Shown here: positions 9,695 through 54,603 of the stretch, piece after piece
Layout: the number at the start of each line of letters is the position of its first letter
Position numbering within the stretch: the first letter of the stretch is position 1
Origin: a virus
IMG/VR virus record: IMGVR_UViG_3300035182_001904
DNA: 64,000 nt
Reading direction: 5' to 3' (one strand)
Position numbers and translations under genes: made by a program
The notes under the pieces: model-generated
Told to the model about the DNA's origin: nothing
The model's database searches: none
What the model saw: only the letters and a program-made list of their open reading frames with translations

Positions 9695-10222
9695 ATGTCC
9701 ATTATCGCCGCGGTGCTCGTGTTCCTGTTCACGTCGCCCAACGACGCCGACGCCTTGCGAAGAACGGCCCCCAACGATCTGACGGCGCCGGCGGCGATGG
9801 AGCACCTGACCTCGGCACGCATCGCAGCTTCGTTCTACGGCATCGACGCGGACATGTTGCTCAGCACCGCGTACTTCGAGAGCCGCTACACCTCGAGCGT
9901 GGTGGGCCCAGTCGTAGCAGGCAAGACCGCATGCGGCGTGCTGCAGCCGACCATGGAAACGAAGTGCGTGGGCCAGACCGTGCTCGAGGACTACCTCGAC
10001 GGGGCCAAGCACCTGCAGGACTGGTATCGCGCGTGTCGTGGCAACGAGCGGTGCGCACTGCTCGGCTACGGAGGTGGCTACGCGCTGATCAAGAGCTGCG
10101 CCGAAGGCCCCGTCATGCGTGAGCGTGGTGGCCGCAAGGTCGACCTGTGCACGATCCCCGACATCCGCCAGTTCCGTGCTCGTTGGATTAAAAAAGAGCG
10201 GGCGAAGCGCTCGAACAGCTAA
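9695..10222 (+). CDS. lytic transglycosylase (SLT-like) with N-terminal signal/anchor; endolysin candidate
   Basis: AYFES (catalytic Glu), CGVLQ and ALLGYGGG motifs; hydrophobic N-terminus. Confidence 0.7.
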   Translation: MSIIAAVLVFLFTSPNDADALRRTAPNDLTAPAAMEHLTSARIAASFYGIDADMLLSTAYFESRYTSSVVGPVVAGKTACGVLQPTMETKCVGQTVLEDYLDGAKHLQDWYRACRGNERCALLGYGGGYALIKSCAEGPVMRERGGRKVDLCTIPDIRQFRARWIKKERAKRSNS

Positions 10223-10425
10223 CCGTCGCGGAACTTGAGGTCGAGCTTCTTCAGCGTGGCCGCGTTGACGATCACCTCACCCACTGTCTCGTACGCGAAC
10301 CGCGGTAGATAGTCGACCGCGCTGCCGATGCACATGAGGCACGTCGGAAACTCGTGGCAGACGTCGTACTCCGGCGTGATCCCCGAAGGGGTGACGTCGT
10401 CGTTCTCGACGACGATCGCATACAC
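10219..10425 (-). pseudogene. duplicated C-terminal half of an HC3 gene carrying the probable original tail
   Basis: contains copy 1 of the 124-bp repeat (PTCLMC) but lacks the G-x-x-H N-terminal motif. Confidence 0.6.
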
Positions 10426-10621
10426 GACAGGAACTGGTCATCGGAGACATAGAAACCTTGGCGACAAGCCCCAAGCGTTCCTGATAACAGGGTCACGCGC
10501 GAACCGCGGTAGATAGTCGACCGCGCTGCCGATGCACATGAGGCACGTCGGAAACTCGTGGCAGACGTCGTACTCCGGCGTGATCCCCGAAGGGGTGACG
10601 TCGTCGTTCTCGACGACGATC
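10294..10621 (+). repeat. perfect 124-bp direct repeat (10294-10417 and 10498-10621)
   Basis: base-by-base identical, offset 204 bp. Confidence 0.95.
10417..10497 (+). repeat. 81-bp copy of 11832-11912 (one mismatch)
   Basis: cgcatacacgacaggaactggtcatcgg..ctgataacagg(g/t)tcacg occurs at both loci. Confidence 0.95.
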
Positions 10622-10719
10622 TCGCCGCACTGGGTGTAGATATGACGGTAGCCATAGCTACCTGCGATGTGGACGATGCCGTGTTCGTCCTTCCAGCCTG
10701 GCGTGTGGATCATGATCAC
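10438..10719 (-). CDS. HC3 zinc-finger family microprotein
   Basis: DEHGIVH..TQCG..PTCLMC. Confidence 0.75.
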   Translation of the reverse strand: MIMIHTPGWKDEHGIVHIAGSYGYRHIYTQCGEIVVENDDVTPSGITPEYDVCHEFPTCLMCIGSAVDYLPRFARDPVIRNAWGLSPRFLCLR

Positions 10720-10973
10720 CTCTTACTACGCAAGTAGCGGACCAACGAACCCGATTCGACGGGATCAGAGTTCGCGCTCCACCATGTCGTTGTGTACATC
10801 TTCGCAAGGCACTGAAGACACGTAACGATCACGCCTTGGTCGATGGCGAACCAAGCTTCAGCGAGACCGCACACGGCGACATCTTCGTTGCCACGGTGAT
10901 GTACGTAGACTTCGTTCTGGTCGTAGACTGCATGGACGATACCCGTCGTAGACTTGGCAACGTAGGTACTCAC
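10716..10973 (-). CDS. HC3 family microprotein
   Basis: TTGIVH..VCG..VTCLQC; GTGA overlap. Confidence 0.75.
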   Translation of the reverse strand: MSTYVAKSTTGIVHAVYDQNEVYVHHRGNEDVAVCGLAEAWFAIDQGVIVTCLQCLAKMYTTTWWSANSDPVESGSLVRYLRSKR

Positions 10974-11245
10974 GCACCCTTGCCCAAGCACTGAAAGCAT
11001 GTGACCGCACCAGGGTCGATTGCGGGCGCGTTGTTCACCTCTTTGCGAGAGAGCCCCATGTTGTCGCACATGCGCGCCCAGCCTCGCGTCAACCGCGACC
11101 ACACCACGCGATGGGTGAGACTGTCCTCGTCCCCCATGCGGAAGGTTCCGATCCCGAACTGGCTTTCGCGCTCGTCGCAGTCTTGGAGATGGATCAACGA
11201 CCAACGGTCATCGATTTCAGACATTGTCGTGCTCCTTATCACCAC
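10970..11245 (-). CDS. HC3 family microprotein
   Basis: DEDSLTH..MCD..VTCFQC. Confidence 0.7.
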   Translation of the reverse strand: MVIRSTTMSEIDDRWSLIHLQDCDERESQFGIGTFRMGDEDSLTHRVVWSRLTRGWARMCDNMGLSRKEVNNAPAIDPGAVTCFQCLGKGA

Positions 11246-11345
11246 GCGACCTCCGCGAGGCGCTTGGCCTTGTTGAAGGTCTTCGCGAAGCTTGTCCCCT
11301 TGCCGAAGTAAGGCGCGTCAAGGGGCTTGGCGTAGTTCCATGACG

Positions 11346-11594
11346 TCACTCCTTGGCGTTTATCACGTCTGAGATCGGCTCAGCAACAATACACCGCATG
11401 CACGTGGGGAAGTCGTCGGTCTTGGTTCGGGCGTTGACGTCATCAACGGTAACGGAGTACCCGCAGAATGTTGTGTACGAAACACGCTTGACACCTCGAG
11501 ACATCTTGTACTCGGACCGATAGATGCGATGGCGGAGCTTGCGGAAGGGGTCGTGCCAATGCCAAGGCATTGTGGAACGGTAGACAAGGATCAC
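11346..11594 (-). CDS. HC3 family microprotein
   Basis: DPFRKLRH..FCG..PTCMRC. Confidence 0.7.
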   Translation of the reverse strand: MILVYRSTMPWHWHDPFRKLRHRIYRSEYKMSRGVKRVSYTTFCGYSVTVDDVNARTKTDDFPTCMRCIVAEPISDVINAKE

Positions 11595-12070
11595 GGCTTC
11601 TCGTACGTCTTCAACAACTTGTCGAGTCCAGGGTTGCGCCTCAGCCACTCATCGAAGAGCTTCGCCACTTCCTCGGAAGTGAGGCTGTACGCTTCATCGA
11701 GAACACGCCGGGGTATGTTCTGCATGTTGGGCTTGGAGCTGTTGAGCGTCGACCCGTACACCTGGGCGACCCGTGATTCTTTCTGAGTCTGTCGGAAGCT
11801 GATTCCGTCCGTACACACGCCCGATGCGCAACGCATACACGACAGGAACTGGTCATCGGAGACATAGAAACCTTGGCGACAAGCCCCAAGCGTTCCTGAT
11901 AACAGGTTCACGTAGACGCCACACTCGGTAATACCGTCCGTGGGGTAGACATGAACGTCACGCTGTTCGTAGCTCGACCCGTGTGCCGCGAGCACCATGT
12001 GCACGAGGTTGTCGTGGTAGGGCCCGCTGCTGTAGCGAAACGTCCAGCGGTCGCGCCCCAGCGGCCTCAT
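11591..12070 (-). CDS. HC3 family protein with a family-A-polymerase-like C-terminal fragment
   Basis: DNLVH..ECG..LSCMRC, then RQTQK..VYG..SSKPNMQNIPRR..EEVAKLFDEWLRRNPGL. Confidence 0.7.
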   Translation of the reverse strand: MRPLGRDRWTFRYSSGPYHDNLVHMVLAAHGSSYEQRDVHVYPTDGITECGVYVNLLSGTLGACRQGFYVSDDQFLSCMRCASGVCTDGISFRQTQKESRVAQVYGSTLNSSKPNMQNIPRRVLDEAYSLTSEEVAKLFDEWLRRNPGLDKLLKTYEKP

Positions 12071-12276
12071 CGGCTCTCCCATGCGATGCACTCCAGGCAT
12101 GTGGGTATTCGATTTCCCGCTTGAATCTCATCGCTTCCAAAGTAGCGGCCGCACCACGTCTGATACGCAGTAAGGCTGCGTCCGGGGAAATTCACGATGT
12201 GGACGATGCCAACGCCATCAACGACGGTGTACTCGCTACGTTTTGATGTCACGTTCACAGCCCGGCTCCCAGGCAT
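12067..12276 (-). CDS. HC3 family microprotein
   Basis: DGVGIVH..WCG..PTCLEC. Confidence 0.75.
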   Translation of the reverse strand: MPGSRAVNVTSKRSEYTVVDGVGIVHIVNFPGRSLTAYQTWCGRYFGSDEIQAGNRIPTCLECIAWESR

Positions 12277-12469: not shown

Positions 12470-12972
12470 GGCGCCGCTTTCAACCGTTCGAGGTGGGCCT
12501 CGAGGTGCACGAGCGCATCGTCGAGCGTCGCGAACGTGGCGGGCCGCGTCTCCATCATCTCCGCACGACAACCAACGGCGTGGCCGTCGAACTGAGCGAT
12601 GCGGTTGCAGTTACAGCGATACATCTCGTAGTACTGCTTCCGTGCCTTCACGATGTCGATCGCGGCTTGCACCCCCTTCTGCTCTTCTGTGCCGTCCGCG
12701 AGCCCTCGACCGTAGATACACTCGAGCTTCTCGCTCAGGTACGCGATGTGGAGCGGTGCGAACGGCAGGTGGATGTCGCCGTGCACGTTCGCGTGCACCC
12801 ACTCGATGCCAGAGCTGTCGGCTTCGTGGCAGAGCTTGATGTACTCGTTCATCAGGCCCGTGAACTCGATGAAGGCGTGGCAGCCCGAGGCCACCGCAGC
12901 CCTGTAGAACGCGTTCGAGGCGGCGTGCATCTTCGCAAGAATCGCGGCACGCTCTTCGTGGGTTTCTTTCAT
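12466..12972 (-). CDS. hypothetical protein
   Basis: 168-aa helical ORF with strong GC3 bias. Confidence 0.7.
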   Translation of the reverse strand: MKETHEERAAILAKMHAASNAFYRAAVASGCHAFIEFTGLMNEYIKLCHEADSSGIEWVHANVHGDIHLPFAPLHIAYLSEKLECIYGRGLADGTEEQKGVQAAIDIVKARKQYYEMYRCNCNRIAQFDGHAVGCRAEMMETRPATFATLDDALVHLEAHLERLKAAP

Positions 12973-13199
12973 CAGTCCTTCGCTTTCACGATGCACTGGA
13001 GGCACGTGATGAGAGGGCAGTGCTCGCGGTCGTATTCGACGACGGGCGTTCGTACCTGGATGGTGGTGTCGCAGAGCAACACCGTTGAGAACGAACCGCT
13101 GACCATCGGCAAGCGCCCCACTCGATGCAGGAGGCCGTCGATGTTCGCGGTCCACACCTTGACGCTGAGAGTGGCGAACACCTGGGCCTCCTCGAACAT
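12972..13199 (-). CDS. HC3 family microprotein
   Basis: IDGLLH..LCD..ITCLQC. Confidence 0.7.
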   Translation of the reverse strand: MFEEAQVFATLSVKVWTANIDGLLHRVGRLPMVSGSFSTVLLCDTTIQVRTPVVEYDREHCPLITCLQCIVKAKD

Positions 13200-13455: not shown

Positions 13456-13780
13456 GTCTTGGCTTTCTCCTGTTCCTTGTACGCGCGCATCAACGCCTCC
13501 TGCTTGAGACGCTCGGGCCAGTAGACCTCGGGCAGGCTGTAGTAGGCGCCCTTCGCCTCGACGAGTGGTCACGAATCTCCACGCACAGCAGGCACGTCTT
13601 GTATGAACTGGGGGAACCGTCCCAGACGCCGCTCGAGTAGTCGTACTTCGTGCCCTTGGGGATGGGCTCACGACACTCCGAGCACGTGTGCTCCTTGCGC
13701 GCCTTGCGGACCGCCCTGGACGCGCACGTAGGGCCTTCACCATCGTTGCCTTGCAGCGGGCAGCAAACAACGGTGCTCAT
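13452..13780 (-). pseudogene. zinc-ribbon protein interrupted by a frameshift or deletion near 13562
   Basis: RKARKEHTCSEC..YKTCLLC in one frame; VEAKGAYYSLPEVYWPERL..KT-stop in another frame, ending in an ATGA overlap with the next gene. Confidence 0.55.
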
Positions 13781-13965
13781 GAACGCCCTGTGTAGAGGTG
13801 GGCGTAGGCGACGCACGGGATGCACGTCGGCGGACCTTCGACCTCAGGATAGCCGCCTGTATGATCGCCGTGCGGTGCCATACATACGGTCATGTAGGTA
13901 CGGGCCTGTTCGATGTGAACAAGCCCGTCTCTAGGGAAAATCAAGATGAACCGTTGCCGATTCAC
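13777..13965 (-). CDS. HC3 family microprotein
   Basis: RDGLVH..VCM..PTCIPC. Confidence 0.7.
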   Translation of the reverse strand: MNRQRFILIFPRDGLVHIEQARTYMTVCMAPHGDHTGGYPEVEGPPTCIPCVAYAHLYTGRS

Positions 13966-14297: not shown

Positions 14298-14525
14298 CTA
14301 GAAATCACCCCACGGTCTGTCAGCCCACATCCAGTCGTGCATCGTCACTCCTGCAGCGCAACCCATGCACGACACCGGCTGTTCCGTTGCCTCGGTGTCA
14401 CCTGTCATCAGGCCACACTTGAACCAAGGCCACTCGGACCGCATGTCGCGGTCGTTCTTCTCACCGAGATGTACGAGCCCCGTACGTCGGTCTAGGAAAC
14501 GGTCAGAGATCAACCGCGGAGGCAT
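14298..14525 (-). CDS. HC3 family microprotein
   Basis: DRRTGLVH..KCG..VSCMGC. Confidence 0.7.
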   Translation of the reverse strand: MPPRLISDRFLDRRTGLVHLGEKNDRDMRSEWPWFKCGLMTGDTEATEQPVSCMGCAAGVTMHDWMWADRPWGDF

Positions 14526-14934
14526 GGATGATGTGCTCCTTAGCGAGGCAGCCGAAGCAAGTGACGGCCTCGTCGGTGGACAGGATGTACATCGAGTCGA
14601 CGGTCTCGTCGTCACAGAAACGCTTCCAGACGGTCTCGCCGTGCCCACTGATGTACGGGTACATCCCGACGTGGTGGGTAAGCGCGGCCGTGCCGAGTTC
14701 GCGCCACTTGTGGAACGGCGGCACGTACGACAGCGGTGTCATCATCAAGACCTGGTGGGTGAAGGACTGCTGCGACAGTTTCGCCTTGATGGTGTCGCCG
14801 ATGAGGTTCTGCATCGCGACGGTCTGGGTCGGCGTCAGCTGCTCGCCGATCTTGTGCTTGAGCGCGTCCCTGAGGGTCCCGCTCATGTGGTCCATGGTCT
14901 TCTTCAGCCGCTTCTTACGTTGGCGCTTGTTCAC
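14503..14934 (-). CDS. protein with C-terminal HC3 module
   Basis: basic helical N-terminus, then ALTH..FCD..VTCFGC. Confidence 0.7.
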   Translation of the reverse strand: MNKRQRKKRLKKTMDHMSGTLRDALKHKIGEQLTPTQTVAMQNLIGDTIKAKLSQQSFTHQVLMMTPLSYVPPFHKWRELGTAALTHHVGMYPYISGHGETVWKRFCDDETVDSMYILSTDEAVTCFGCLAKEHIIHASAVDL

Positions 14935-15391
14935 GGGCGATGCACTCCAAGCACGTCACGAGGCGGGTCTCCTTCGGGAGGTAGGCACGGACGCGGTCCC
15001 GTGCCTCCTCACCCTGCCAGAAGAACGGACGCTCGCACAACGCGAGACCGTGCTGGTCCGCATATGGCCACAAGGCCACGATGTGTGCAAGCTCGGTGTC
15101 GACGTCGACCATGACGAAACGCTCGTTCACGTGCGCGTCGTTGAGCCTGCAGTCCTCGATGGTCATGTTCTCGTCTTCGACCTGTTCGCAGTAGAGGTCG
15201 TAGCAGCGAGCCCACTCACCCTCGCGGTGGCACTGCTTGATGATGGTCCGCAGGTTGTCGTCGGTGACCTCGTTGTCGAGGTTGTCCATCACGAGATCCG
15301 CACGCGCTTCGAGCGCAGCCTCGTGGGTTGCGTACGCAGAGACGTCGGTCCCGTGACGGTGCTCGTAGTAGATGACGAACACGCGTTGCAT
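14915..15391 (-). CDS. protein with C-terminal HC3 module
   Basis: unrelated N-terminus, then DTELAH..LCE..VTCLEC. Confidence 0.7.
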   Translation of the reverse strand: MQRVFVIYYEHRHGTDVSAYATHEAALEARADLVMDNLDNEVTDDNLRTIIKQCHREGEWARCYDLYCEQVEDENMTIEDCRLNDAHVNERFVMVDVDTELAHIVALWPYADQHGLALCERPFFWQGEEARDRVRAYLPKETRLVTCLECIAREQAPT

Positions 15392-15729
15392 CAGTCCAGC
15401 CCTCCCATGGCCACGCAACGCAGACACGTCGGCGCTTCGTGGACGTTCCACGCGACGACGGTGAAGCGGAGCTTCGCAGCGATCGGAGAGCCGGGCGACG
15501 TCATCGCGTCGTGCATGTCGACGTTGGGCAGATTGTGCGACCCGGCCCAGGGCAACCGTTGCGGGTTCGCGACCATCGTGACCGCGGGATGACAGGCCGT
15601 CGCGACGTGGAGCGCCGAGATCAAGCTCTCGTTGGCATCGTCGAAGAAGCGCATCACCGAGGCCATGTGCACGAGGCCGTCCTTGTCACGAACGGCCCAG
15701 ATGTTCCGTTGGGGACGGAGCCGCGTCAT
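15391..15729 (-). CDS. HC3 family protein with a long loop
   Basis: DKDGLVH..ACH..PTCLRC. Confidence 0.7.
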   Translation of the reverse strand: MTRLRPQRNIWAVRDKDGLVHMASVMRFFDDANESLISALHVATACHPAVTMVANPQRLPWAGSHNLPNVDMHDAMTSPGSPIAAKLRFTVVAWNVHEAPTCLRCVAMGGLD

Positions 15730-15965
15730 CGCCGCGCCCCAGGTCGCTGCGGGCAGAACCGGTTCTCGTGCGGCCCCAGGCACACCGTGCAGTGCGTCTT
15801 GCCCGTCTTGATCTCCAGCTCGATCGAGTCAGCGGTCTTGCGGAACATCTCGGCGCGGTTCCGATGAACCCCTCCGTAATGCCCGCGACCTTCTTCGTAC
15901 GAAGCCCAGCGCAGCTCGTCGTCGGCGAGCTTGTTCCAGTGGGCCGCGGATTCTTGCGTCGTCAT
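15726..15965 (-). CDS. hypothetical protein with CxxC-H-C tail
   Basis: HCTVCLGPHENRFCP. Confidence 0.6.
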   Translation of the reverse strand: MTTQESAAHWNKLADDELRWASYEEGRGHYGGVHRNRAEMFRKTADSIELEIKTGKTHCTVCLGPHENRFCPQRPGARR

Positions 15966-16192
15966 GATTCTTTCTCCTGACCAGCGCCGCTCGAGGGCGG
16001 TGCGATCGCGCAGTAGAGGCACGTGAACGGCGTAGTCGTCGGCTTGATGGGCAGGATGTCGCGTTCGAGGAATCGCACGGGGTCGTTGTGGTGCGCGAAG
16101 TCCCGCCGACACGCCGTGAGGCCGTACTCGTACTTCGTCTCCGGAACGCGTACCAGGTGCACGAGCCCATCGAAGAGAGCGAGCACATTCAT
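15962..16192 (-). CDS. HC3 family microprotein
   Basis: FDGLVH..ACR..FTCLYC. Confidence 0.75.
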   Translation of the reverse strand: MNVLALFDGLVHLVRVPETKYEYGLTACRRDFAHHNDPVRFLERDILPIKPTTTPFTCLYCAIAPPSSGAGQEKES

Positions 16193-19013: not shown

Positions 19014-19355
19014 CTAGTTGTCGCCTTTGTTCTGCATCACATGCAGAGCGAGCCCGCGTCCTCGCGCCATCCGCTCGCGCCGAACCTTCACGAGGTCGGG
19101 CGGACGTTTCCCACACAGCTTCGCGCCCTCTTCGAGAAGCTTCTCGAGACGCCCCACCTCTTGTGCAAGCGTCGCGTGTGCAGCTGACAACACGTCGTAG
19201 AAATCACCAGCGAGACCCCGTTCGTGACAGACCGCGTCGATCTCATCCTTGATGGCACGCAGGAGGCGCTGGTACGTGAACTCGTAGACGTCCTGCAGGT
19301 CATCCCCCACGAGACGCCTCGAGTGCGAGACACGCGAAACATGTGATGGGCTCAT
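19014..19355 (-). CDS. hypothetical protein
   Basis: helical ORF within the operon. Confidence 0.55.
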   Translation of the reverse strand: MSPSHVSRVSHSRRLVGDDLQDVYEFTYQRLLRAIKDEIDAVCHERGLAGDFYDVLSAAHATLAQEVGRLEKLLEEGAKLCGKRPPDLVKVRRERMARGRGLALHVMQNKGDN

Positions 19356-19491
19356 CGTCGTGCACAGTCATCGGCGGACCATACTGCGACGTCGCACCGC
19401 ATAAAATCTCCTCGGCGCGACTACGGATGGTGATGTGCACGAGCCCCCAGCTGTAGATGTTCCAGCCGAAGACGTTCCAATGAATCTTCAC
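19300..19491 (-). CDS. HC3 family microprotein
   Basis: SWGLVH..LCG..ITCFAC. Confidence 0.75.
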   Translation of the reverse strand: MKIHWNVFGWNIYSWGLVHITIRSRAEEILCGATSQYGPPMTVHDDEPITCFACLALEASRGG

Positions 19492-20083: not shown

Positions 20084-20314
20084 CTAGATCGTGCACTTGA
20101 GTTCGATGATGTCCATGCGCTGACGTGAGCGGTCGGCGATGCACCAGAGACACGTCACGATGCCGCCCCAGCGCCAGTCGTACGCACGGGGCACAGTGAC
20201 ATAGCCGCCACACCGCACGTTCAGCTTGGCTTCGGGTGCATGATCTCGTACGGAAATGAAGTGGACGGTCGTGACTTCATGCACGAGGTTATCGATGAAG
20301 ACACAGTCGGTCAC
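20084..20314 (-). CDS. HC3 family microprotein
   Basis: IDNLVH..RCG..VTCLWC. Confidence 0.75.
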   Translation of the reverse strand: MTDCVFIDNLVHEVTTVHFISVRDHAPEAKLNVRCGGYVTVPRAYDWRWGGIVTCLWCIADRSRQRMDIIELKCTI

Positions 20315-20559
20315 GTCGACGTCACCAGGTTCGGCCCACCAACACCCCACTCGAACCAACACAACGAACTGCCATCCGCGCCACTGAGGCACCAGAAGCA
20401 CGTGGGTACGGCGTTCACGTCATAGTGCTGGTCCATCGACGATGCAGCGAATCGACCCCGGCACATGGCGAGGTTGAGCATTCGAACATCACGAAGGTGG
20501 ACGACAGGATCGGGTCCTTTGATGCGGACGTAGTCGGTGTACTTCATGACGTAGGCCAT
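20311..20559 (-). CDS. HC3 family microprotein
   Basis: PDPVVH..MCR..PTCFWC. Confidence 0.75.
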   Translation of the reverse strand: MAYVMKYTDYVRIKGPDPVVHLRDVRMLNLAMCRGRFAASSMDQHYDVNAVPTCFWCLSGADGSSLCWFEWGVGGPNLVTST

Positions 20560-20810: not shown

Positions 20811-21025
20811 GGGGCTTCGTCGCCTTTTGCCAAACATTGGAGGCAAGTTATGAAGCCCTTGAAGACGCGCGGCTTCTTGCCACCGCTTGTCGTCCAAAGC
20901 GTGTCGTGAGACTCACACAACGTGGCCCACGCGAACGTGCCGTCGTTCCACCACTCGACGACAACATGTCGAACACCATCAACCTTCCAGACGACATCCG
21001 GCAGGGTGCGGTTGTCCCAGCTCAC
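20807..21025 (-). CDS. HC3 family microprotein
   Basis: VDGVRH..LCE..ITCLQC. Confidence 0.75.
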   Translation of the reverse strand: MSWDNRTLPDVVWKVDGVRHVVVEWWNDGTFAWATLCESHDTLWTTSGGKKPRVFKGFITCLQCLAKGDEAP

Positions 21026-44458: not shown

Positions 44459-44638
44459 TTAGCGTTTGGCAGGGGCTCGGACATTTCGCTGCTCCTGGGC
44501 GATGCACTCGAGGCACGTCACCATCTTTGGCTTGGGGTCAACCAGCCACTCACCACCCACCCACGCCCTCGACCATCCACACCAGGTGCCATGCCCGATC
44601 GCAAAATGGACCAGGCCTGCCTCGTCCGTGCATGTCAC
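44459..44638 (-). CDS. HC3 family microprotein
   Basis: DEAGLVH..WCG..VTCLEC. Confidence 0.75.
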   Translation of the reverse strand: MTCTDEAGLVHFAIGHGTWCGWSRAWVGGEWLVDPKPKMVTCLECIAQEQRNVRAPAKR

Positions 44639-44799
44639 CAAGGTGTCCACAGACGACTGATCACACACCACAGGCACGTTGGATACTTCCCAGAGCCACG
44701 TTCGGTCGCGCCCGTCATTCGTTTGTTGCAACACGTCCACTCGGGGTACCGCTTGGTCACAACATGCACGACGCCGTCGTGGTCAGTATATGTCGTCAC
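44635..44799 (-). CDS. HC3 family microprotein (54 aa, not in the ORF track)
   Basis: manual translation VTTYTDHDGVVH..WTCCN..PTCLWC. Confidence 0.75.
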   Translation of the reverse strand: MTTYTDHDGVVHVVTKRYPEWTCCNKRMTGATERGSGKYPTCLWCVISRLWTPW

Positions 44800-45334
44800 G
44801 AGGGTCCCCGCGGGCGATGCACTGGAAGCACGTTACCATGAGCTGGTCTTCGACCATTCGAAGCTTGGCGTAGCGCTCCGTGGTCATCTGATTGACGTCG
44901 AGCAGCCGGCCGTTCATGTTGCAACGTGGGCAGCTGTCGAGAGGCCAACGCGCGTGAACAACACGGGCGTCGTCCTCCAGAGGTACCGGCGTACGTAGGT
45001 AGTCCTCCACCAGGATTGTACCCCGACGAGTCAACTCACCTTCGTGCGTCAAATAGTCCGCACGTACGAGCGCTTTAAGCGACTCGCGCACGCTCAGGAG
45101 AAAGGGATCCTTCTTGGCGACCGCCCTGAGATACCTCTTTGCATGTGGAGGGAGAAGCAAGGGGTTGTCGACCTTGAGGCAGTTCGGACATGTGGGGGTT
45201 CGCGCGCCCCACTCTCCTTCTTCGTAGTACGATCCGCACAACGTCCACACGGCGCCCGGCGGTGTACGCATCGACTTCGTCTCGTGCACCACATGCCATA
45301 TGTGGCCACGTTTGACTTTGTACGACGTCTTCAT
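44783..45334 (-). CDS. protein with two HC3 modules
   Basis: GHIWH..LCG..PTCPNC and DDARVVH..SCPRC..VTCFQC. Confidence 0.75.
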   Translation of the reverse strand: MKTSYKVKRGHIWHVVHETKSMRTPPGAVWTLCGSYYEEGEWGARTPTCPNCLKVDNPLLLPPHAKRYLRAVAKKDPFLLSVRESLKALVRADYLTHEGELTRRGTILVEDYLRTPVPLEDDARVVHARWPLDSCPRCNMNGRLLDVNQMTTERYAKLRMVEDQLMVTCFQCIARGDPRDDIY

Positions 45335-45531
45335 ACACCATCCTTCGCGATGCACTGCAAACACGTCACCGGAGGTTTAGACGTCTTAGCCGGCGACGTT
45401 TCCTCATTGAGGCGAGAATGTACTTTGTCTTGCGTGAACGAAGCACGACACACCGTCAGACCGTAGTGGTCCGCGGTCTCGTACTGTTTGACCTTATGCA
45501 CAAGACCGTCTTTGATTCGCACAAACATCAT
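45331..45531 (-). CDS. HC3 family microprotein
   Basis: KDGLVH..VCR..VTCLQC. Confidence 0.75.
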   Translation of the reverse strand: MMFVRIKDGLVHKVKQYETADHYGLTVCRASFTQDKVHSRLNEETSPAKTSKPPVTCLQCIAKDGV

Positions 45532-45735
45532 TGAGGCCCTTTGACGTAATCGCCGTCCACCATCGCGATGCACTGGATACACGTGGGAAAACCTGGCGCT
45601 TCAACCTCGTAGGAGCTTTTGTAGAAATACGCCTTGCCACAGACGGGGAGGGCCCCCGCACATGCCGTAGCACCAGGGGGCGATGCCGTGGTAGTCCGTG
45701 AAGAGCGTCAGGTAGAAGTAGTGGGACTTATCCAT
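45528..45735 (-). pseudogene. frameshifted HC3 family member
   Basis: TDYHGIA in one frame and PVCG..PTCIQC in another; breaks lie near C/G runs. Confidence 0.55.
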
Positions 45736-45919
45736 CGACGCCATTCTCCCTTGCGATGCAGGTCAGGCACGAGAGTGTCTTGTCGCCGCCCCACCACTTC
45801 GCGAAGGCGACCGACTGCCCACACGCGGCGTAGACACGGTCCTTTTGTACGATGTGTCGGAGCCCGTCCTGTCCCATATAGGTACGGTCGAACGTGCGGG
45901 CTGTGCGGGTTCGCTTCAC
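45728..45919 (-). CDS. HC3 family microprotein
   Basis: QDGLRH..ACG..LSCLTC. Confidence 0.75.
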   Translation of the reverse strand: MKRTRTARTFDRTYMGQDGLRHIVQKDRVYAACGQSVAFAKWWGGDKTLSCLTCIARENGVDG

Positions 45920-46111
45920 GGAGCTAACTCTTTGCATAGGCACTGGAAACAGGTGACGGAGTCGAGCGTTTCGACGACGTCGATGCGCGGGTCACACGCC
46001 GCCGCGTATCGGGGGGTCGCTGAGTCTCCCGCGATAGAACGTCCGCCTCGTTCGATGGACGAGGCCCAGTGCGTCGATTTGATTGACGACATCTGCTTCA
46101 TCGTGCAACAT
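45916..46111 (-). pseudogene. HC3 family member frameshifted in a G6 run (46011-46016)
   Basis: removing one base gives DALGLVH..AACD..VTCFQC as a 64-aa ORF. Confidence 0.7.
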
Positions 46112-46170: not shown

Positions 46171-46374
46171 ATGCGGACGTGCCTCTACTCCATGTTCTCG
46201 ACCGAGCAGTGCCCGAAGGCACTCGCTTGGATGGCAGCGCTTTGCGCGGCCACGGGACACGGCGGTGACGCCGAGCAGTGGCTGGTCGAGCTGATCGAGG
46301 CGGTCGTGTTCGTCAAGACGCCTGCTGCTCTCGCAACCGTGCCGGCGCTCCGAGACACAGCAAGCATGTCGTGA
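46171..46374 (+). CDS. counter-oriented small ORF inside an HC3 array
   Basis: strong GC3 bias on the plus strand; no convincing minus-strand gene in 46112-46312. Confidence 0.4.
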   Translation: MRTCLYSMFSTEQCPKALAWMAALCAATGHGGDAEQWLVELIEAVVFVKTPAALATVPALRDTASMS

Positions 46375-46516
46375 AGACTATGGCGGGGTCCTGCTCGTCG
46401 GAGATGCACGGCCCGTAGTTACAGTGGCTGTTCTCCTCTTCACACAAGAAGATCGGCATCCGTGGACGACGGGTCTCGTGCACAACGCCGTTCGGGTCAC
46501 GATACCGCCGGCTCAC
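46313..46516 (-). CDS. HC3 family microprotein
   Basis: DPNGVVH..LCE..TTCLLC. Confidence 0.75.
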   Translation of the reverse strand: MSRRYRDPNGVVHETRRPRMPIFLCEEENSHCNYGPCISDEQDPAIVFTTCLLCLGAPARLREQQAS

Positions 46517-46713
46517 CGTGTACCTAAGCAGAGGATGCAGGTGACCGGCGTATCGTAGACCTGTTCCAACCCCATGAACGCCATGTTAGCGGTACCTGCT
46601 TCACACACGGTCAGGGAGTTCGCGCCGTAGCTACCCAACGTCATGTGGACGATCCCCGCCTTGTCGCGAAACGTCTGCAAGGCACGAGAAGCATGCGATG
46701 GGCGTGTCGTCAT
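46513..46713 (-). CDS. HC3 family microprotein (start uncertain)
   Basis: DKAGIVH..VCE..VTCILC. Confidence 0.72.
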   Translation of the reverse strand: MTTRPSHASRALQTFRDKAGIVHMTLGSYGANSLTVCEAGTANMAFMGLEQVYDTPVTCILCLGTR

Positions 46714-46846
46714 CGAGGACCTCCAGCTCTTCCAGGCCATAGAGAACGCCGCGGTTCTCGCAGGTCGTGTAGTGGGCACCGAAGGTGCCCTGGGTGCGGC
46801 TCGTCTCATGAACCACGCCGTGCGTGTCGCGAAGACGCTTCGTCAC
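46631..46846 (-). CDS. HC3 family microprotein
   Basis: DTHGVVH..TCE..IACFSC. Confidence 0.72.
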   Translation of the reverse strand: MTKRLRDTHGVVHETSRTQGTFGAHYTTCENRGVLYGLEELEVLDDDTPIACFSCLADVSRQGGDRPHDVG

Positions 46847-47223
46847 GAAGCCTCCGCGATGCACCAGAAGCAGTACATCGAGTCGTGTTCCCAGATCGCG
46901 TGGTCGTTGCCGATCTTCTCGAGGCCTTGCGCCAGCTCCTTCAGGGCCGTCGTGACCATGTCCGGGAAGTAGCCGTCCTCGTGCATGAAGTCCTTCTCGG
47001 ATTCGTACGAGCAGCCACCGAGGTAGTCGTCAGCCGTCAGGCCGCCGTACGAGACGGAGACCTTGATAGTGCACCACGCCCATTCGTTGCCACGTTCGAG
47101 CTGGTCTCGAACCCACACGACACACGCCTCGTCGTCGAAGTGTTTCGTGAAGTCGTCATACTCCGGCTCGAGGGTGTGCTTGATCGTCGCGAGCTTGCGG
47201 AGCTTCTCGAGGTCGATCTTCAT
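46843..47223 (-). CDS. phage hypothetical protein ending in an isolated CFWCIA tail
   Basis: WCTIKVSV..DYLGGCSY..GYFPDMV, then MYCFWCIAEAS. Confidence 0.65.
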   Translation of the reverse strand: MKIDLEKLRKLATIKHTLEPEYDDFTKHFDDEACVVWVRDQLERGNEWAWCTIKVSVSYGGLTADDYLGGCSYESEKDFMHEDGYFPDMVTTALKELAQGLEKIGNDHAIWEHDSMYCFWCIAEAS

Positions 47224-47660
47224 GGACGTCCTTTGATTTCGTAGGCGATGCAGTTGAAGCAGGTGACGACGTCGACAGCGGGGTACTGCGCAACCGCAGT
47301 CTCGATTCCGCACGCGAACTGAAACGTCGGATCCGACCACGAGATGCGCTTGAACGCTTGGTGGACCGTGCCTTCGTGTTCGACGAGCATCCTCTCGCCG
47401 TTGTCGTAGTCGCGAGCACGAACCTCAGACCCGCGCACGAGCCGATCAACAACGTCCCGCCCCATGACCTCGAGGGTTTCCTCGCTCGCGTACCACCCCC
47501 GCTTCACGTCTTCGGGGTGCATGTGCTGCTCTGCGTTGAAGGGGCTGATCTGTACAGCCCCACAATGGTTGCACATGCCAGCTGACACCTGCTGCATCCC
47601 CACGCCGTTGTCGACGAACTCCGCGTCCGTGTCGATTGACCCGCACCAGCCGCAGGTCAC
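47220..47660 (-). CDS. zinc ribbon plus C-terminal HC3 module
   Basis: CGWCG..CNHCG, then HEGTVH..ACG..VTCFNC. Confidence 0.72.
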   Translation of the reverse strand: MTCGWCGSIDTDAEFVDNGVGMQQVSAGMCNHCGAVQISPFNAEQHMHPEDVKRGWYASEETLEVMGRDVVDRLVRGSEVRARDYDNGERMLVEHEGTVHQAFKRISWSDPTFQFACGIETAVAQYPAVDVVTCFNCIAYEIKGRP

Positions 47661-47899
47661 CACTGGATGCACTGCATGCACGTGATCTCGGGCGCGACTT
47701 CGAGATCGTTGACCTGGCTCCCCTTCAACGCGCCGCAGTGACACATGAACTCGAGGCTTGCTCGGTAGTCCTTGTTCTCGTTGCGGGTGACGATGAGCAG
47801 GTGTGCAAGGCCGTCAGGGCCCTGCACGATCTCGTGGTCACCGAGTTGGGGCGGTGTACGAGCGCGCGCGAGGACTTCGCCGAGGGTCACTCGATCCAC
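47657..47899 (-). CDS. HC3 family microprotein
   Basis: GPDGLAH..MCHCG..ITCMQC. Confidence 0.75.
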   Translation of the reverse strand: MDRVTLGEVLARARTPPQLGDHEIVQGPDGLAHLLIVTRNENKDYRASLEFMCHCGALKGSQVNDLEVAPEITCMQCIQW

Positions 47900-50831: not shown

Positions 50832-51104
50832 TCAGGGCTTCTTGGTAGCGTAGCTGATCAGCCAGGGCTCCACGAGATGCCCCACCGTCTCCATGATGTC
50901 CTTGGCCTCGCTCTCCTTCTTGATCGTCGCTTCGATGGACATGTTGTCGATGCGTGCTTTGACCTTGTAGCTCGTCGGTGTGTACGAGAGCACGAGAGTC
51001 CCGACGTCGCACTTGTCGGGGAACTCGTAGCCCTTGATGCGCTCGACGTCGAGCGAGCGGCGCACCTGTTCAGCGAACTTCTTCACGACCTCAGTCTTGT
51101 CCAT
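50832..51104 (-). CDS. hypothetical protein
   Basis: 90-aa ORF with GC3 bias. Confidence 0.6.
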   Translation of the reverse strand: MDKTEVVKKFAEQVRRSLDVERIKGYEFPDKCDVGTLVLSYTPTSYKVKARIDNMSIEATIKKESEAKDIMETVGHLVEPWLISYATKKP

Positions 51105-51357
51105 CTCGGTAACCTCCTGCGATGCACACGATGCACGTGGGCGCGTCTTCTGTGAGCTTGTTGCGGCCATAGGGATAGATCTTGGCGCGACGACCACACA
51201 CCGCAATGACGACGTGTGCGGTTGGCATCTCGTCACCGTACATGTTGACTTGCCGTGCCTGCTGCTCGTCCTTCGCGACGATGTGGACCATGTCCCAGCG
51301 CTTGACGTTCAGAACCGACTCCTGGTGTCGCCCAGGATCGCCGATCCCCAACACCAC
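51091..51357 (-). CDS. HC3 family protein
   Basis: WDMVH..PTAH..VCG..PTCIVC. Confidence 0.65.
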   Translation of the reverse strand: MVLGIGDPGRHQESVLNVKRWDMVHIVAKDEQQARQVNMYGDEMPTAHVVIAVCGRRAKIYPYGRNKLTEDAPTCIVCIAGGYRDGQD

Positions 51358-52591: not shown

Positions 52592-52872
52592 CGCGCCCTC
52601 CGCAGCTGTCCGTTGATCGCCATGTCGAGGTCCGCGTCGAACTGCGCACAGTGGTTGGCGAGGTCGCGGCACTCCTTGGCGAGGTTGTGGGCCAGCAGGC
52701 CGTACCGGTCACGTTCAGCGCTCGCGGCATCCAGCTCACGGAGCTTCACGGCAAGCGCCTGCCGCGCAAACGCGGCCCGGTCCGCGTGCTCCGCCACGAC
52801 GAGGGCGGTCGCGAAGTCGTTCCCGCTACCTCCGTGGATTGAACCAGGCCCCCGTGTCGCGGAGGCGGACAC
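52588..52872 (-). CDS. coiled-coil hypothetical protein (5' end possibly frameshifted from an ATG at 52906)
   Basis: helical ORF; the ATG overlapping the HNH stop codon is in a different frame. Confidence 0.45.
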   Translation of the reverse strand: MSASATRGPGSIHGGSGNDFATALVVAEHADRAAFARQALAVKLRELDAASAERDRYGLLAHNLAKECRDLANHCAQFDADLDMAINGQLRRAR

Positions 52873-52902
52873 GCAACATGTCTGGTCTGTCAGTGACGCT
52901 GT

Positions 52903-53412
52903 TCATACGTGTTTCCATTGTTGACGTTGAATGATGACGGTGACCTGTTTGGTACTGACACCAAAACGCTTAGCGATGACACGGTGCAAGTCGCCGCGTA
53001 CACCCGCAGCACGGATAGCCAACACCTTTTTAACCGTGAGCTTTGAACGGACGTGTGCTTCACCCTTGGGAGGGTTACCGCGCCCTTTGCGGTGCATGTC
53101 TAGACAGTTGTCTAGAGTTGTTCCCTTGAATAGATGTGCGGGGCGCACGCACCACGGACGGTCACATTTGTGGAGCGCTTTCTTCTTGCCCAATGGGCCA
53201 CAGTGCAGTTCCCACATCACCCGATGCGCCAGGCAGTACCTGTGCTCGCGCGGTGCGAACGAGATGCAGATCTGGCCATACCCGTTCTTGAAACGTTTGC
53301 CGGTCCATTCCCAGCAACCGTCAGGGCGCTTTTTCACCTTCTGCATGAGGCGGGCAAGGCGTTCCGCAGGGGCGATGTCTACCCACGCGTAGTTGGGACG
53401 CCGTCCACGCAT
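52903..53412 (-). CDS. HNH homing endonuclease with C-terminal HTH
   Basis: GCWEWTG..GYGQI..AHRVMWELH..LHKCDRPWCVRPAHL. Confidence 0.88.
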   Translation of the reverse strand: MRGRRPNYAWVDIAPAERLARLMQKVKKRPDGCWEWTGKRFKNGYGQICISFAPREHRYCLAHRVMWELHCGPLGKKKALHKCDRPWCVRPAHLFKGTTLDNCLDMHRKGRGNPPKGEAHVRSKLTVKKVLAIRAAGVRGDLHRVIAKRFGVSTKQVTVIIQRQQWKHV

Positions 53413-53816
53413 CAGCGTCGCTCGAGTTCAGTTCGCTCCTTGACCAGGTCACGATTGAGCGCGGCTTCTTCGGTGAAGCCATTCGGGTAGCGTGCACGGA
53501 GCTTGGCGATCCCGCGTTCCATTGCTTCTTCCATCGAGAAGCCCGCCGCGTCCAAGCAGAGGGACACGTACCACATGACGTCGAAGCACTCCTCCATCAC
53601 GTTCGTGAGGTCCAGTGATTTTCCGTACACCAGGTGCTTCTTCACCATGTCCTGAAGCTCACCGGCTTCGGTGCACACCCCAATCATGCCGTGAAGCAGC
53701 CGCGCCACTCGGCGGTCATGGTCACCAGGCGTCTGAGACGTCGCGGCGGGCATGTTCACGAAGGCAGGCGTGACCTCGGTCCGTAGGCAGAGCTTCTGAA
53801 ATTCGTTTGGCGTCAT
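53412..53816 (-). CDS. MazG-like nucleotide pyrophosphohydrolase
   Basis: LLHGMIGVCTEAGELQDMVKK..EECFDVMWY..NIAKL-type ending GIAKLRARYPNGF. Confidence 0.85.
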   Translation of the reverse strand: MTPNEFQKLCLRTEVTPAFVNMPAATSQTPGDHDRRVARLLHGMIGVCTEAGELQDMVKKHLVYGKSLDLTNVMEECFDVMWYVSLCLDAAGFSMEEAMERGIAKLRARYPNGFTEEAALNRDLVKERTELERR

Positions 53817-53863
53817 CGTCCGTTGATACCATGCCTGTATCCTGCTTCGTCAACGCGATAAAC

Positions 53864-54148
53864 CTAGCCTTTGACTTCGGGAAGCAGGGCGTGAATCTTC
53901 GCGGCCCACTCGGCGTTGAATCGTGCTTGCGCGGTGTGTTCGTCGGCCCGCACCTTCTCGAGCTGCGCGAGGAGTTTCTTCCCCGCCTCGATCGGCATGA
54001 TCTTGATGGGCACGAACCACATGTGCCCGTACTCCTTGGTGCGCACGACCCCGTCGGGACGCATCTCGACGACGGTGCCACCGAGCACGAACGGGAACGA
54101 GCGGTACTTCCAGAACGCGAACAGGCCCGTGATCTTCTTGGTCGTCAT
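53864..54148 (-). CDS. hypothetical protein
   Basis: GLFAFWKYRSFPFVLGG. Confidence 0.65.
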   Translation of the reverse strand: MTTKKITGLFAFWKYRSFPFVLGGTVVEMRPDGVVRTKEYGHMWFVPIKIMPIEAGKKLLAQLEKVRADEHTAQARFNAEWAAKIHALLPEVKG

Positions 54149-54603
54149 TTCATTCCTCGCAACTGCGCTTCAGCACCAAGAACCTCGAGCCACTCACGCC
54201 AGTCGTCCTTGAAGTGCTCTTCGTCGCGGATGAGCTTCTTGATCGAGTTGACCAAGTGCTGATCGTCCATTTCGAACGGGTACAGCTGCCGAGCATCCTT
54301 GGTGACCCACTTCCCCAGCTGCATCGTCTCCTCGCGGACGTAACCGTCGACGCACGCCGGGCAGCCCTTGCAGAGCATGCACTGCAGGCACGTCGGACCT
54401 TTGTAGACGACGAACTGAGGTCCGAAGCGTGTCTTGCAGCACGTCACGTAGGCGTCGGCGCCGTAGCACCAGCCACACACGTGCACCAAGCCATCGCCGT
54501 CGTGGTGCTGCATGAAGCTACGGTTGACTCGATAGGGCGGGTCGAACGATCCCTTGATGACACTGTCACGCGTTCTGACGCCGCTCGAGAGGGTGTTGGC
54601 CAC
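54145..54603 (-). CDS. HC3 module fused to a C-terminal W.TK-MDD.HL domain
   Basis: DGDGLVH..TCCK..PTCLQC, then WVTKD..EMDDQHLVNSIKKL. Confidence 0.7.
   Translation of the reverse strand: MANTLSSGVRTRDSVIKGSFDPPYRVNRSFMQHHDGDGLVHVCGWCYGADAYVTCCKTRFGPQFVVYKGPTCLQCMLCKGCPACVDGYVREETMQLGKWVTKDARQLYPFEMDDQHLVNSIKKLIRDEEHFKDDWREWLEVLGAEAQLRGMK

Follow-up and report, generated by a model that had tools for sequence, protein, structure and literature searches.

An array of divergent small His-Cys3 proteins in an uncultured phage arose by old, lineage-specific expansion of a single unnamed family

A stretch of viral DNA of 64,000 nucleotides (the window; IMG/VR record IMGVR_UViG_3300035182_001904) carries dozens of short minus-strand open reading frames (ORFs) that end in a similar cysteine motif. 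The locus raises the question whether these ORFs are genes, whether they form one family, how their number arose and what they may do. The initial annotation took the source to be a phage, and this was borne out. The window lies within a 158-kb IMG/VR phage record, identical to a contig of 180 kb, of an uncultured phage of about 180 kb that has its own multisubunit RNA polymerase, with beta and beta' fused. Its nearest cultured relatives, Salmonella phage Arash and Vibrio phages (41-44% identity), infect Salmonella and Vibrio; there is no evidence for an actinophage, and the actinobacterial link drawn earlier was not supported.

A search for T-C-x-x-C-[ILVMA] gave 48 matches in the three minus-strand frames versus two in the plus-strand frames. 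With an iterated profile HMM, 43-47 minus-strand domains were found in the window at E<1e-3 and none on the plus strand, where the best match had an E of 0.065; sequences shuffled by residue or by triplet (ten of each) gave 0 matches. A profile built from three related phages only, with no window sequence, still detected 41 minus-strand domains, with the plus strand empty. The curated list holds 47 minus-strand ORFs and 46 profile-supported domains, in agreement with the earlier manual count of about 45. They lie at the positions first noted: 14 at 10.2-16.2 kb, eight at 19.3-22.3 kb, ten at 32.6-35.4 kb and 12 at 44.4-47.9 kb, with single copies at 40.7, 51.1 and 54.1 kb. Most are 54-95 aa long and ten have 110-203 aa. 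All copies of the whole genome fall inside the window, and with 45-47 very divergent copies the family takes about one sixth of the phage genes.

Long spurious frames are typical of high-GC DNA, many of the array ORFs are short, and 13 of them lack a JGI gene call in the parts of the window covered by these calls or lie outside them. The array could on these grounds be a set of chance open frames in GC-rich DNA. This reading is refuted by the empty opposite strand and shuffles, the independent detection with the relatives-only profile, the conserved orthologues with pN < pS (see below) and 471 metagenomic protein clusters that match the family; its probability is practically nil.

The family signature is G-[LIV]-V-H ... 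C ... T-C-x-x-C-[IL]-A. Across the four genomes (169 domains), the ligand columns are conserved at 97% (H), 97% (C), 99% (C) and 96% (C), which upholds the claim of one family with a fixed His-Cys3 signature. All four ligands are present in 41 of the 46 window domains, spaced by 8-28 residues from H to C and by 14-30 from C to CxxC. Judged by this residue pattern, the four conserved residues are putative zinc ligands. Mean column identity among the window copies is 16%, and the sequence between the ligands is indeed nearly unalignable, as had been stated. The pI ranges from 4.1 to 11.4, with 23 of 46 copies above 8 and eight acidic. Two-domain fusions occur in the window and in metagenomes. 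Many gene junctions are overlaps of 1 nt, 4 nt or longer, confirming the chaining seen before.

The cluster at 10.2-16.2 kb includes, at 10219..10425, a truncated member of 68 aa with a GTG start and the CxxC half only (HMM i-E 3.4e-4). It is a recent partial duplicate, with 10294-10417 being 100% identical to 10498-10621. Beside it lie members of 91 aa with 4/4 ligands (10438..10713, i-E 1.3e-13; orthologue in related genome G001 at 51%), 94 aa (10716..11000, i-E 2.2e-9), 84 aa (10970..11224, i-E 8.1e-11; G001 orthologue 65%) and 74 aa (11346..11570, i-E 8.3e-14; orthologues in G001, G002 and G003, 47-56%). The 163-aa member at 11591..12082 (i-E 3.1e-4; orthologues 54-57%) has a 78-aa C-terminal tail and is the source of an 81-nt repeat (D2) at 11832-11912. 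Further members have 69 aa (12067..12276, i-E 1.6e-14; AlphaFold2 model 1, pLDDT 77.8, pTM 0.61), 75 aa (12972..13199, i-E 2.6e-10; G001 orthologue 70%), 62 aa with a GTG start and without a JGI call (13777..13965, i-E 4.9e-10) and 75 aa (14298..14525, i-E 2.7e-10; G001 orthologue 78%, omega 0.15). N-terminal extensions are found in the 143-aa (14503..14934, i-E 3.5e-9; basic extension) and 158-aa (14915..15391, i-E 2e-9) members. A 112-aa member (15391..15729, i-E 1.4e-4), in which a long insert separates the middle Cys from CxxC, is split in two by the HMM, with four ligands visible; the member at 15962..16192 has 76 aa (i-E 4.3e-10).

At 19.3-22.3 kb, members of 63 aa (19300..19491, i-E 7.7e-10), 76 aa (20084..20314, i-E 7.8e-9), 82 aa (20311..20559, i-E 6.7e-10; G003 orthologue 67%), 83 aa (20559..20810, i-E 4.1e-11; start overlapping the upstream stop as ATGA), 83 aa (20807..21058, i-E 1e-11) and 72 aa (21022..21240, i-E 7.2e-11) were found next to two divergent ORFs. 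The candidate at 21195..21806 (203 aa; E 0.0017 with the first HMM, 0.22 with a later one) consists of an N-terminal domain without assignment followed by a C-terminal H..C..TCxxC, and gave no match in a Pfam search. The first gene of block 1, a divergent member of 195 aa (21728..22315, i-E 1.4e-3; G003 orthologue 76%), terminates in T-C-K-G-G-C, the last Cys being displaced by one.

The cluster at 32.6-35.4 kb contains the last gene of block 2, 90 aa with a Cys-rich 47-aa tail (32583..32855, i-E 4.9e-10), and a 110-aa member without the middle Cys (H-CC; 32852..33184, i-E 1.8e-6; G003 orthologue 63%). Seven members have 69 aa (33181..33390, i-E 8.3e-9), 63 aa (33383..33574, i-E 7e-11), 82 aa, or 68 aa from the alternative GTG 33886 (33680..33928, i-E 3.7e-15; P0016), 75 aa (33883..34110, i-E 4.4e-11), 72 aa (34107..34325, i-E 1.8e-8; P0018), 77 aa (34728..34961, i-E 8.3e-10) and 71 aa (34913..35128, i-E 4.4e-10). 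A weak candidate of 95 aa at 35128..35415 shows G-L-I-H and T-C-F-T-C, is without the middle Cys and reaches an i-E of only 0.19-0.28. The singletons are a 65-aa ORF at 40703..40900 (i-E 6e-11; AlphaFold2 model 2, pLDDT 79.1, pTM 0.61) and a 66-aa ORF at 51091..51291 (start uncertain, alternative 51357; i-E 8.4e-8; G001 orthologue 54%). The member at 54145..54603 (152 aa, i-E 1.2e-8) has a Cys-rich 77-aa tail and an uncertain start (alternative 54735).

The cluster at 44.4-47.9 kb holds the two members below 60 aa, of 59 aa with a GTGA overlap with the upstream stop (44459..44638, i-E 2.9e-13; G001 orthologue 66%) and 54 aa with a GTG start matching P0022 (44635..44799, i-E 1.4e-13; G003 orthologue 72%, omega 0.11). 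These and a frameshifted member at 45528..45735 match the earlier remark that such copies had been missed. In a three-frame read of the latter (i-E 1.8e-7 on the C-terminal part), the N-terminal part, with the sole His upstream of the break, is in one frame and the Cys3 part lies in another; its orthologues in G001 and G003 are matched as single stretches of about 73-76 codons. A two-domain member of 183 aa (44783..45334) has two H..C..CxxC modules (i-E 9.4e-9 C-terminal, 1.5e-3 N-terminal). Regular members have 66 aa (45331..45531, i-E 1.2e-13; P0019), 63 aa from a GTG start (45728..45919, i-E 2.1e-11; 49 aa according to JGI), 61 aa (45916..46101, i-E 5.4e-5), 67 aa with a GTGA overlap (46313..46516, i-E 3.5e-10), 66 aa (46513..46713, i-E 1.7e-10) and 77 aa (47657..47890, i-E 3.6e-5). 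In the 77-aa member at 46631..46864 (i-E 5.2e-13), A-C-x-x-C replaces T-C-x-x-C; the ORF shares 83 nt with the next member, read in a different frame, and GTG 46864 is its sole start candidate. The 147-aa member at 47220..47663 (i-E 1.1e-10; G003 orthologue 68%) has an N-terminal extension with an extra CxxC.

Upon comparison with related phages, 46 domains here stand next to 28, 58 and 37 in relatives at 80-85% polymerase identity. Counts of zero were obtained for one complete relative whose polymerase shares 60% identity, for 14 distant IMG/VR relatives (ten at least 90% complete), for a fragment of 33% completeness (67% identity) and for phages Arash and D69. For 30 of the 46 copies a colinear reciprocal-best orthologue is present in the relatives, at 41-78% identity. 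In 71 of 71 orthologue pairs pN was lower than pS, with omega between 0.09 and 0.74 where computable. Paralogues within each genome are alike at the motif level only (median best score 26-29 bits). The array thus goes back to an old expansion, specific to this lineage, of a single unnamed small-protein family, and each paralogue has long persisted as a gene in its own right under purifying selection.

The initial annotation had considered a gene accordion or active hypervariation, i.e. a recent build-up of tandem copies under selection, or loops diversified by targeted mutagenesis. Repertoires do differ between the related phages, which do not share one fixed set, and one recent mosaic event was found, in which the duplicated 10294-10417 adjoins 10417-10497, 99% identical to 11832-11912; it yielded a truncated extra copy. 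However, no other within-genome pair reaches 60 bits in any of the four genomes, the orthologues are conserved and in the same order, with pN < pS in every pair, contigs from several samples are 100% identical, and the record, which is 85% complete, yielded no reverse transcriptase. Old orthologous copies, the lack of a reverse transcriptase and a single recent partial duplication rule out both forms of this reading, which is largely refuted and to which we assign a very low probability.

Searches of the family against Pfam, PHROGs, NCBIfam and PDB sequences gave no match. AlphaFold2 models of two divergent members (34% identity; pLDDT 78-79, pTM 0.61) have the same strand order and a C-terminal helix starting at CxxC, and three of their top six BFVD matches are common. 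The predicted fold is a small beta-sheet domain followed by this helix. Its structural neighbours are weak, small barrels of the SH3, Tudor, KOW and PWWP type at noise level (Z <= 2.6). The best small ESM Atlas shape match is a 78-aa Actinomycetota cluster (TM 0.67/0.60 over 56 residues, rmsd 2.2), which also came up in the feature search (0.88, 175 shared features). PF16827 (zf-HC3) occurs in 23% of its members, so that distant kinship with the actinobacterial zf-HC3, perhaps in one superfamily with DUF3039, may be considered, the fold then being a known one expanded in phage. One copy matches PF16827 at E 0.02, and the N-terminal domain of 44783..45334 has a sub-threshold DUF3039 match of 14.8 bits. 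Against this, the PF16827 model found 0 domains in the six-frame genome, 0 among 123 relatives and one among 41 copies, all below the 25-bit cut-off, and only that 23% of the Atlas cluster carries it. The membership suggested in the initial annotation was therefore not supported; a distant branch is possible, if rather doubtful, and would even then supply no function.

The array belongs to the non-structural arm. In each of the four genomes the polymerase gene is encoded on the other strand, and in G002, which is complete, the array flanks the terminal repeats. From this position and strand we infer early expression. Just past the last gene of block 1 is a minus-strand terminator-like hairpin with T-run (10196..10212, consensus scan), a class of site that is near chance in the region (14 found versus 9.6 expected). 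In the ORF map, the divergent intergenic region 22316..22765 separates minus-strand block 1 from the plus-strand fibre block and is the probable start of block 1 transcription; its single sigma-70-like site (22435-22407) is at chance level, and promoter-like sites scanned in the region showed no excess over chance. Directly downstream of the array, a 2H-phosphoesterase with a weak Acb1-like match is encoded.

A comparable expansion was described by Iyer et al. (2021), who reported about 35 zinc ribbons in Bacillus phage G and proposed them as specific transcription factors or structural nucleic-acid-binding proteins (PMC7824862), so the earlier statement that no phage system of this scale had been described has to be withdrawn. 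Those ribbons are unrelated to the present family, which counts 45-47 copies. Similar roles, exerted together with the phage's own RNA polymerase, could be imagined here: the fused polymerase is encoded, its subunits are the most abundant virion proteins of the relative Arash (PMC10585845), half of the copies are basic (pI > 8), and many of the barrels among the weak structural neighbours bind nucleic acid. These matches are, however, at noise level, and neither a known DNA-binding motif nor a Pfam match was found. Distant relatives with the same polymerase have 0 copies, which indicates that the family does not belong to the polymerase apparatus, and the wide pI range, with its eight acidic copies, argues against one nucleic-acid ligand common to all. 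We consider this role unlikely, while the 23 basic copies leave room for nucleic-acid binding by part of the family.

The array may reasonably be read as a library of binding modules, the reading that we prefer. The four conserved residues would hold one zinc ion and thereby stabilise a domain whose small size would keep it from folding well by itself, and the divergent loops and surfaces (pI 4-11) could provide each copy with a binding partner of its own. The set would then be a germline repertoire of small binding modules encoded in the non-structural arm. Its targets would most likely be host proteins, bound for takeover or counter-defence, a proposal that we hold with about even confidence. 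In Pfam, PHROGs, NCBIfam and PDB, no copy matched a protein with a known role in anti-defence or takeover. In size, the array ranks with the largest expansions of a single family seen in phages.

A regular-expression search for T-C-x-x-C-[ILVMA] gave 48 matches in the three minus-strand frames of the window against two in the plus-strand frames. Nearly all minus-strand matches were located 3–30 residues from the stop, most of them with [LIV]-[VA]-H upstream. A profile HMM, seeded with 25 strict matches and then iterated, detected 43 minus-strand domains at i-E < 1e-3, the best plus-strand E value being 0.065. When copies from three related phages were added, 46–47 domains were found on the minus strand and none on the plus strand, and a profile built from the relatives only, with no window sequence inside, recovered 41 minus-strand domains and again none on the plus strand. 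None of the controls, ten shuffled by residue and ten by triplet, contained a profile match. The minus-strand array of His-Cys3 microproteins proposed in the initial annotation is thus confirmed by pattern and profile, and by the plus-strand and shuffle controls.

The curated list consists of 47 ORFs, at the positions annotated initially, and all four ligands are present in 41 of the 46 profile-supported domains. In an alignment of 41 domains, the His and the first Cys of the CxxC are invariant and the middle Cys, the Thr and the last Cys are conserved at 90% or more, at a mean column identity of 16%. Across 169 domains from four genomes, the ligand columns contain H, C, C and C at 97%, 97%, 99% and 96%, with 8–28 residues from H to C and 14–30 from C to CxxC. 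Deviating copies are a truncated recent duplicate (10219–10425), a member without the middle Cys (32852–33184), one with the last Cys shifted by one residue (21728–22315), one with a long insert (15391–15729) and one broken by a frameshift (45528–45735). The ORFs at 21195–21806 and 35128–35415 are weak candidates only, and the protein at 44783–45334 carries two domains. An early minus-frame match antisense to the plus-strand gene at 9695–10222 vanished on iteration and was discarded. Two minus-strand members at 46631–46864 and 46513–46713 (within 46513–46864) lie in different frames and overlap by 83 nt; since both are strong by profile, either the long overlap is genuine or a start has been set wrongly.

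The copies are contained in two runs of minus-strand genes. Block 1 lies between a divergent intergenic region (about 22.3–22.8 kb) and a terminator-like hairpin (10196–10212), and block 2 extends from past 55 kb to 32.6 kb. Where JGI gene calls cover the window, 42 of the 92 minus-strand genes belong to the family. Packing is tight, with many overlaps of 1 nt, 4 nt or longer and few gaps, which would fit co-transcription without proving it. Promoter and terminator scans found sites at chance level, and inspection of the few intergenic gaps revealed no obvious common motif. The array is split by a plus-strand block (22.8–32.6 kb) in which two proteins of 803 and 1255 aa with collagen triple-helix repeats (24383–30562) are probable fibres. 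Much of this block, including the collagen-repeat stretch, had no DNA match in the aligned part of the related phage G003, which has other genes at the position of that stretch.

Most genes near the array have no assigned function; also among them are genes for a thymidine kinase, a GerE-type regulator, an HTH protein and a large protein with DUF8224. The minus-strand thymidine kinase (18425–19012) has its nearest relatives, at 50–60% identity, in genomes of Bdellovibrionota, Oligoflexia, Chlamydiae and proteobacterial lake MAGs, which may be a weak hint to habitat or host and is not decisive. A 417-aa fusion protein (7354–8607, minus strand) combines a 2H phosphoesterase domain (2_5_RNA_ligase2, E 6e-15) with a cupin domain and shows a sub-threshold match to the anti-CBASS protein Acb1 (E 7e-4, 19.8 bits against a cut-off of 27). 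It adjoins the array in G003 as well and is a candidate enzyme for the degradation of cyclic-nucleotide signals. Next to it, four tandem minus-strand ORFs of 342–359 aa (3142–4221, 4221–5249, 5253–6281 and 6282–7322; together 3142–7322), of which the first three cross-match at 68–80% DNA identity, form a second, smaller paralogous family; one member searched against Pfam gave no match.

The window corresponds to bases 16986–80985, on the reverse strand, of a 158,425-bp IMG/VR record with a CheckV completeness estimate of 85%. A profile search of the whole record placed every family match in the window. JGI contigs of 180,329 and 42,953 bp and Logan contigs were 100% identical to the window over the 1.3–20 kb aligned. 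The DNA was found in four sequencing runs, from sediment and microbial-mat metagenomes, with no RNA run listed. Outside the window, a minus-strand ORF of 1815 aa (G000:C1:132266–137713, where G000 is the phage's own record; L011:12269–17713) encodes a fused RNA polymerase in which beta is joined to an N-terminal portion of beta'; domains 3 and 6 of Rpb2 precede domains 1 and 2 of Rpb1. A DnaG-type primase zinc ribbon, a helicase and an M23 peptidase protein are also located outside the window. A further minus-strand ORF there, of 980 aa (G000:C1:115857–118799; L010:15860–18799), contains Hint, intein-splicing and LAGLIDADG domains and represents an intein lodged in a host protein.

The closest cultured homologue of the polymerase ORF is gp206 of Salmonella phage Arash. 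By polymerase identity the closest cultured relatives are Arash (41%) and the Vibrio phages D69, D181 and D148 (44%), which resemble this phage in genome size (about 180–187 kb) and in their related RNA polymerase beta. Among the proteins of Arash virions, beta and beta' rank with the most abundant (PMC10585845). Unlike this phage, Arash and D69 contain no family copies. Two pieces of the window had no megablast match among 50,697 cultured phage records. Nothing in the evidence speaks for an actinophage identity; some family-like ESM Atlas clusters carry an Actinomycetota label, which is not decisive as a host clue.

Relatives were collected from IMG/VR by their polymerase and the whole records were searched with the family profile; in the copy ranges that follow, the low figure comes from the first profile and the high figure from the iterated one. 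Three relatives carry the family: G001 (157 kb, 84% complete, polymerase identity 82%) with 27–28 copies, G002 (184,915 bp, complete with terminal repeats, 80%) with 39–58 and G003 (175 kb, 94% complete, 85%) with 33–37. No copies were found in the complete genome G004 (polymerase identity 60%), in G022 (62 kb, 33% complete, 67%), in 14 distant relatives of 154–225 kb (about 40%; 10 of them at least 90% complete) or in the cultured Arash and D69 (41–44%). Each of the four carrier genomes has all its copies on a single strand, the one opposite to that of the polymerase gene, and in G002 the copies are positioned at 0.1–8.5 kb and 150–181 kb, on either side of the terminal repeats. The family is confined to one subclade and sits in the non-structural arm of the genome.

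Within each genome, the best paralogue matches are at motif level only, with a median of 26–29 bits. The single within-genome pair of at least 60 bits in the four genomes is the partial duplicate in the window, which shows 93% protein identity and 100% identity over 124 nt. This is a mosaic: 10294–10417 equals 10498–10621 exactly (124 nt), and the intervening 81 nt are a 99% copy of 11832–11912, from another member. The mosaic (10294–10621) creates a truncated extra ORF and alters the C-terminal tail of 10438–10713. It is recent, and the sole recent event. The suggestion that the array is a gene accordion was accordingly abandoned, as one partial recent duplicate is all that was found and no other within-genome pair reaches 60 bits.

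Between genomes the copies are conserved. Reciprocal-best orthologues in G001 and/or G003, colinear and 41–78% identical, were identified for 30 of the 46 window domains; in G002 only three window domains have one. In each of the 71 orthologue pairs pN (0.11–0.49) was lower than pS (0.41–0.91), and where dS was computable omega ranged from 0.09 to 0.74, rough values because dS is near saturation. The median orthologue identity is 48–51% for the family against 59–63% for non-family neighbours in the same blocks. A reverse transcriptase (PF00078) was searched for in the 85%-complete record without a match, control genomes being matched, so the array was rejected as a target of a diversity-generating retroelement; a mutagenic system was likewise rejected, since in addition the orthologues are conserved with pN < pS throughout. 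The expansion is old; its members have each become separate, conserved genes, with a slow turnover of the repertoire from lineage to lineage.

The family is new and unnamed. In four libraries (Pfam, PHROGs, NCBIfam and PDB sequences), no member or relative reaches any model; PHROGs and NCBIfam gave no matches, and a PDB-sequence match to the family profile at E 0.23 was judged to be chance. One member, compared by tblastn with the same 50,697 records of cultured phages, had a best E of 3. A profile search of 1.84 billion representative proteins returned 471 clusters at E ≤ 0.001, and the clusters examined were small metagenomic proteins, often from contigs of 175–194 kb, with a few two-domain fusions; a few repeat proteins that match the D-G-V-V-H part only are spurious. 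One relative, P0017 (188 aa, two family domains), starts with H-E-M-G-H-R-L-G-L-G-H, a metzincin-like HExxHxxGxxH motif, which may come from a gene call cut short or from a genuine fusion. Ten longer members searched against Pfam had no informative fused domain, and the impression of an HNH_3-like N-terminal motif in 21195–21806 and 21728–22315 had no support from Pfam.

The family has the ligand set of zf-HC3 (PF16827), which we take from its name to be a one-His/three-Cys family, in a domain of about 60–70 aa. Like the copies, zf-HC3 and DUF3039 (PF11238) have one His and three Cys at a similar size; both are made up of Actinomycetota proteins and neither is known to form multigene arrays in phages. 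Unlike members of these families, no copy reaches their model cut-offs. A Pfam search of 41 copies gave one zf-HC3 match, at E 0.02 and under the 25-bit cut-off, and the N-terminal domain of 44783–45334 matched DUF3039 at 14.8 bits (E 0.004; cut-off 22.7). The zf-HC3 model had no matches in the six-frame genome at E ≤ 1 or among 123 metagenomic relatives at E up to 0.1, no match in a word-indexed protein search with a wider alignment was labelled PF16827, and no zf-HC3 match was found in pRHL1.

Two members sharing 34% identity (12067–12276 and 40703–40900) were folded with family alignments by AlphaFold2, with pLDDT values of 77.8 and 79.1 and a pTM of 0.61 each. In both models, four or five strands lead into a C-terminal helix starting at the CxxC, which agrees with a common fold as predicted from these two divergent members. 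The four conserved residues would bind one zinc ion and so stabilise the small domain. A predicted homodimer of 12067–12276 with zinc scored 0.13 against a mark of 0.42. Foldseek against the PDB gave no convincing neighbour (best E 0.47), VIA-align against 48,161 chains returned generic SH3, Tudor and PWWP-like barrels (best Z 2.6) and BFVD contained no match at E ≤ 0.001. No known fold could be assigned to the models, which would not by itself imply a novel one. A shape search of the ESM Atlas gave one suggestive match, to a cluster of 78 aa from Actinomycetota (TM 0.67/0.60 over 56 residues, rmsd 2.2), 23% of whose members are zf-HC3; the same cluster scored 0.88 in the feature search. The link to zf-HC3 suggested in the initial annotation was therefore a fair lead, and a distant kinship is possible; by the zf-HC3 cut-off and in the genome search, the family does not belong to zf-HC3.

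The initial annotation knew of no described phage system of this scale, which needs correction: Bacillus phage G contains a lineage-specific expansion of about 35 zinc ribbons, gp32 (YP_009015343.1) being one of them (Iyer et al. 2021, PMC7824862). Its genome measures 498 kb with 694 annotated features. In both phages, a single large genome holds dozens of small paralogues with zinc motifs, with 46 domains here and 28–58 in the three relatives. The family profile had no matches in phage G (NC_023719), and hhalign of the family against gp32 gave a probability of 0.1%. In gp32 the Cys/His motif is near the N-terminus (CxxC ... CxHxC), whereas in the family the His, the Cys and the C-terminal CxxC are spread across the beta domain. 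The precedent is thus analogous and non-homologous. With 46–58 copies per about 180 kb, the family takes a far larger gene share than the ribbons of phage G, roughly 13–21% when estimated on the 272–347 annotated features of the cultured relatives, and is a proportionally larger new instance of lineage-specific expansions of small zinc-motif proteins in large phages.

For the phage G ribbons, a role as transcription factors or DNA-binding proteins was suggested (PMC7824862). Read in the same way, the copies would serve the phage's own polymerase as specific factors in transcription or nucleic-acid binding. This is the main rival explanation, and we consider it rather unlikely; distant relatives with the same polymerase carry no family copy.

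A use of the copies as a repertoire of binding modules against host proteins, in takeover or counter-defence, appears the most likely, although as a whole reading we hold its chances to be about even. The divergent loops, surfaces and charges of the copies (pI 4.1–11.4) would give each a different partner. In its specific form, in which one zinc-stabilised microprotein fold supplies inherited, target-specific binders of host proteins or defence systems, with a copy per target and a repertoire reshaped between lineages, the proposal is tentative and may well not hold.

In large eukaryotic viruses, the MGF110/360/505 families of ASFV and the ankyrin and Bcl-2-like families of poxviruses occupy terminal variable regions and act in host range and immune evasion. 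As in the array, many diverged paralogues of one fold lie near the genome ends and the repertoires vary between relatives. These families differ from the array in their eukaryotic hosts, their unrelated folds and their documented recent gain and loss; the array shows hardly any recent duplication.

Phages rarely show large expansions of a single small fold; phage G is the one described case found and is smaller relative to its genome. The family lies outside Pfam, PHROGs, NCBIfam and the PDB, yet accounts for close to half the genes of two long blocks and occurs in several related phages of about 180 kb. It is under purifying selection. Whichever reading holds, it merits a name and a solved structure. 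Were the copies transcription factors, they would illustrate how gene expression is programmed in a phage that has its own polymerase. If they are target-specific binders, the array would catalogue the host functions important to this phage group and would be a source of very small zinc-stabilised scaffolds for binder discovery. As a binder repertoire, the family would be to this phage group what the terminal multigene families are to large eukaryotic viruses.
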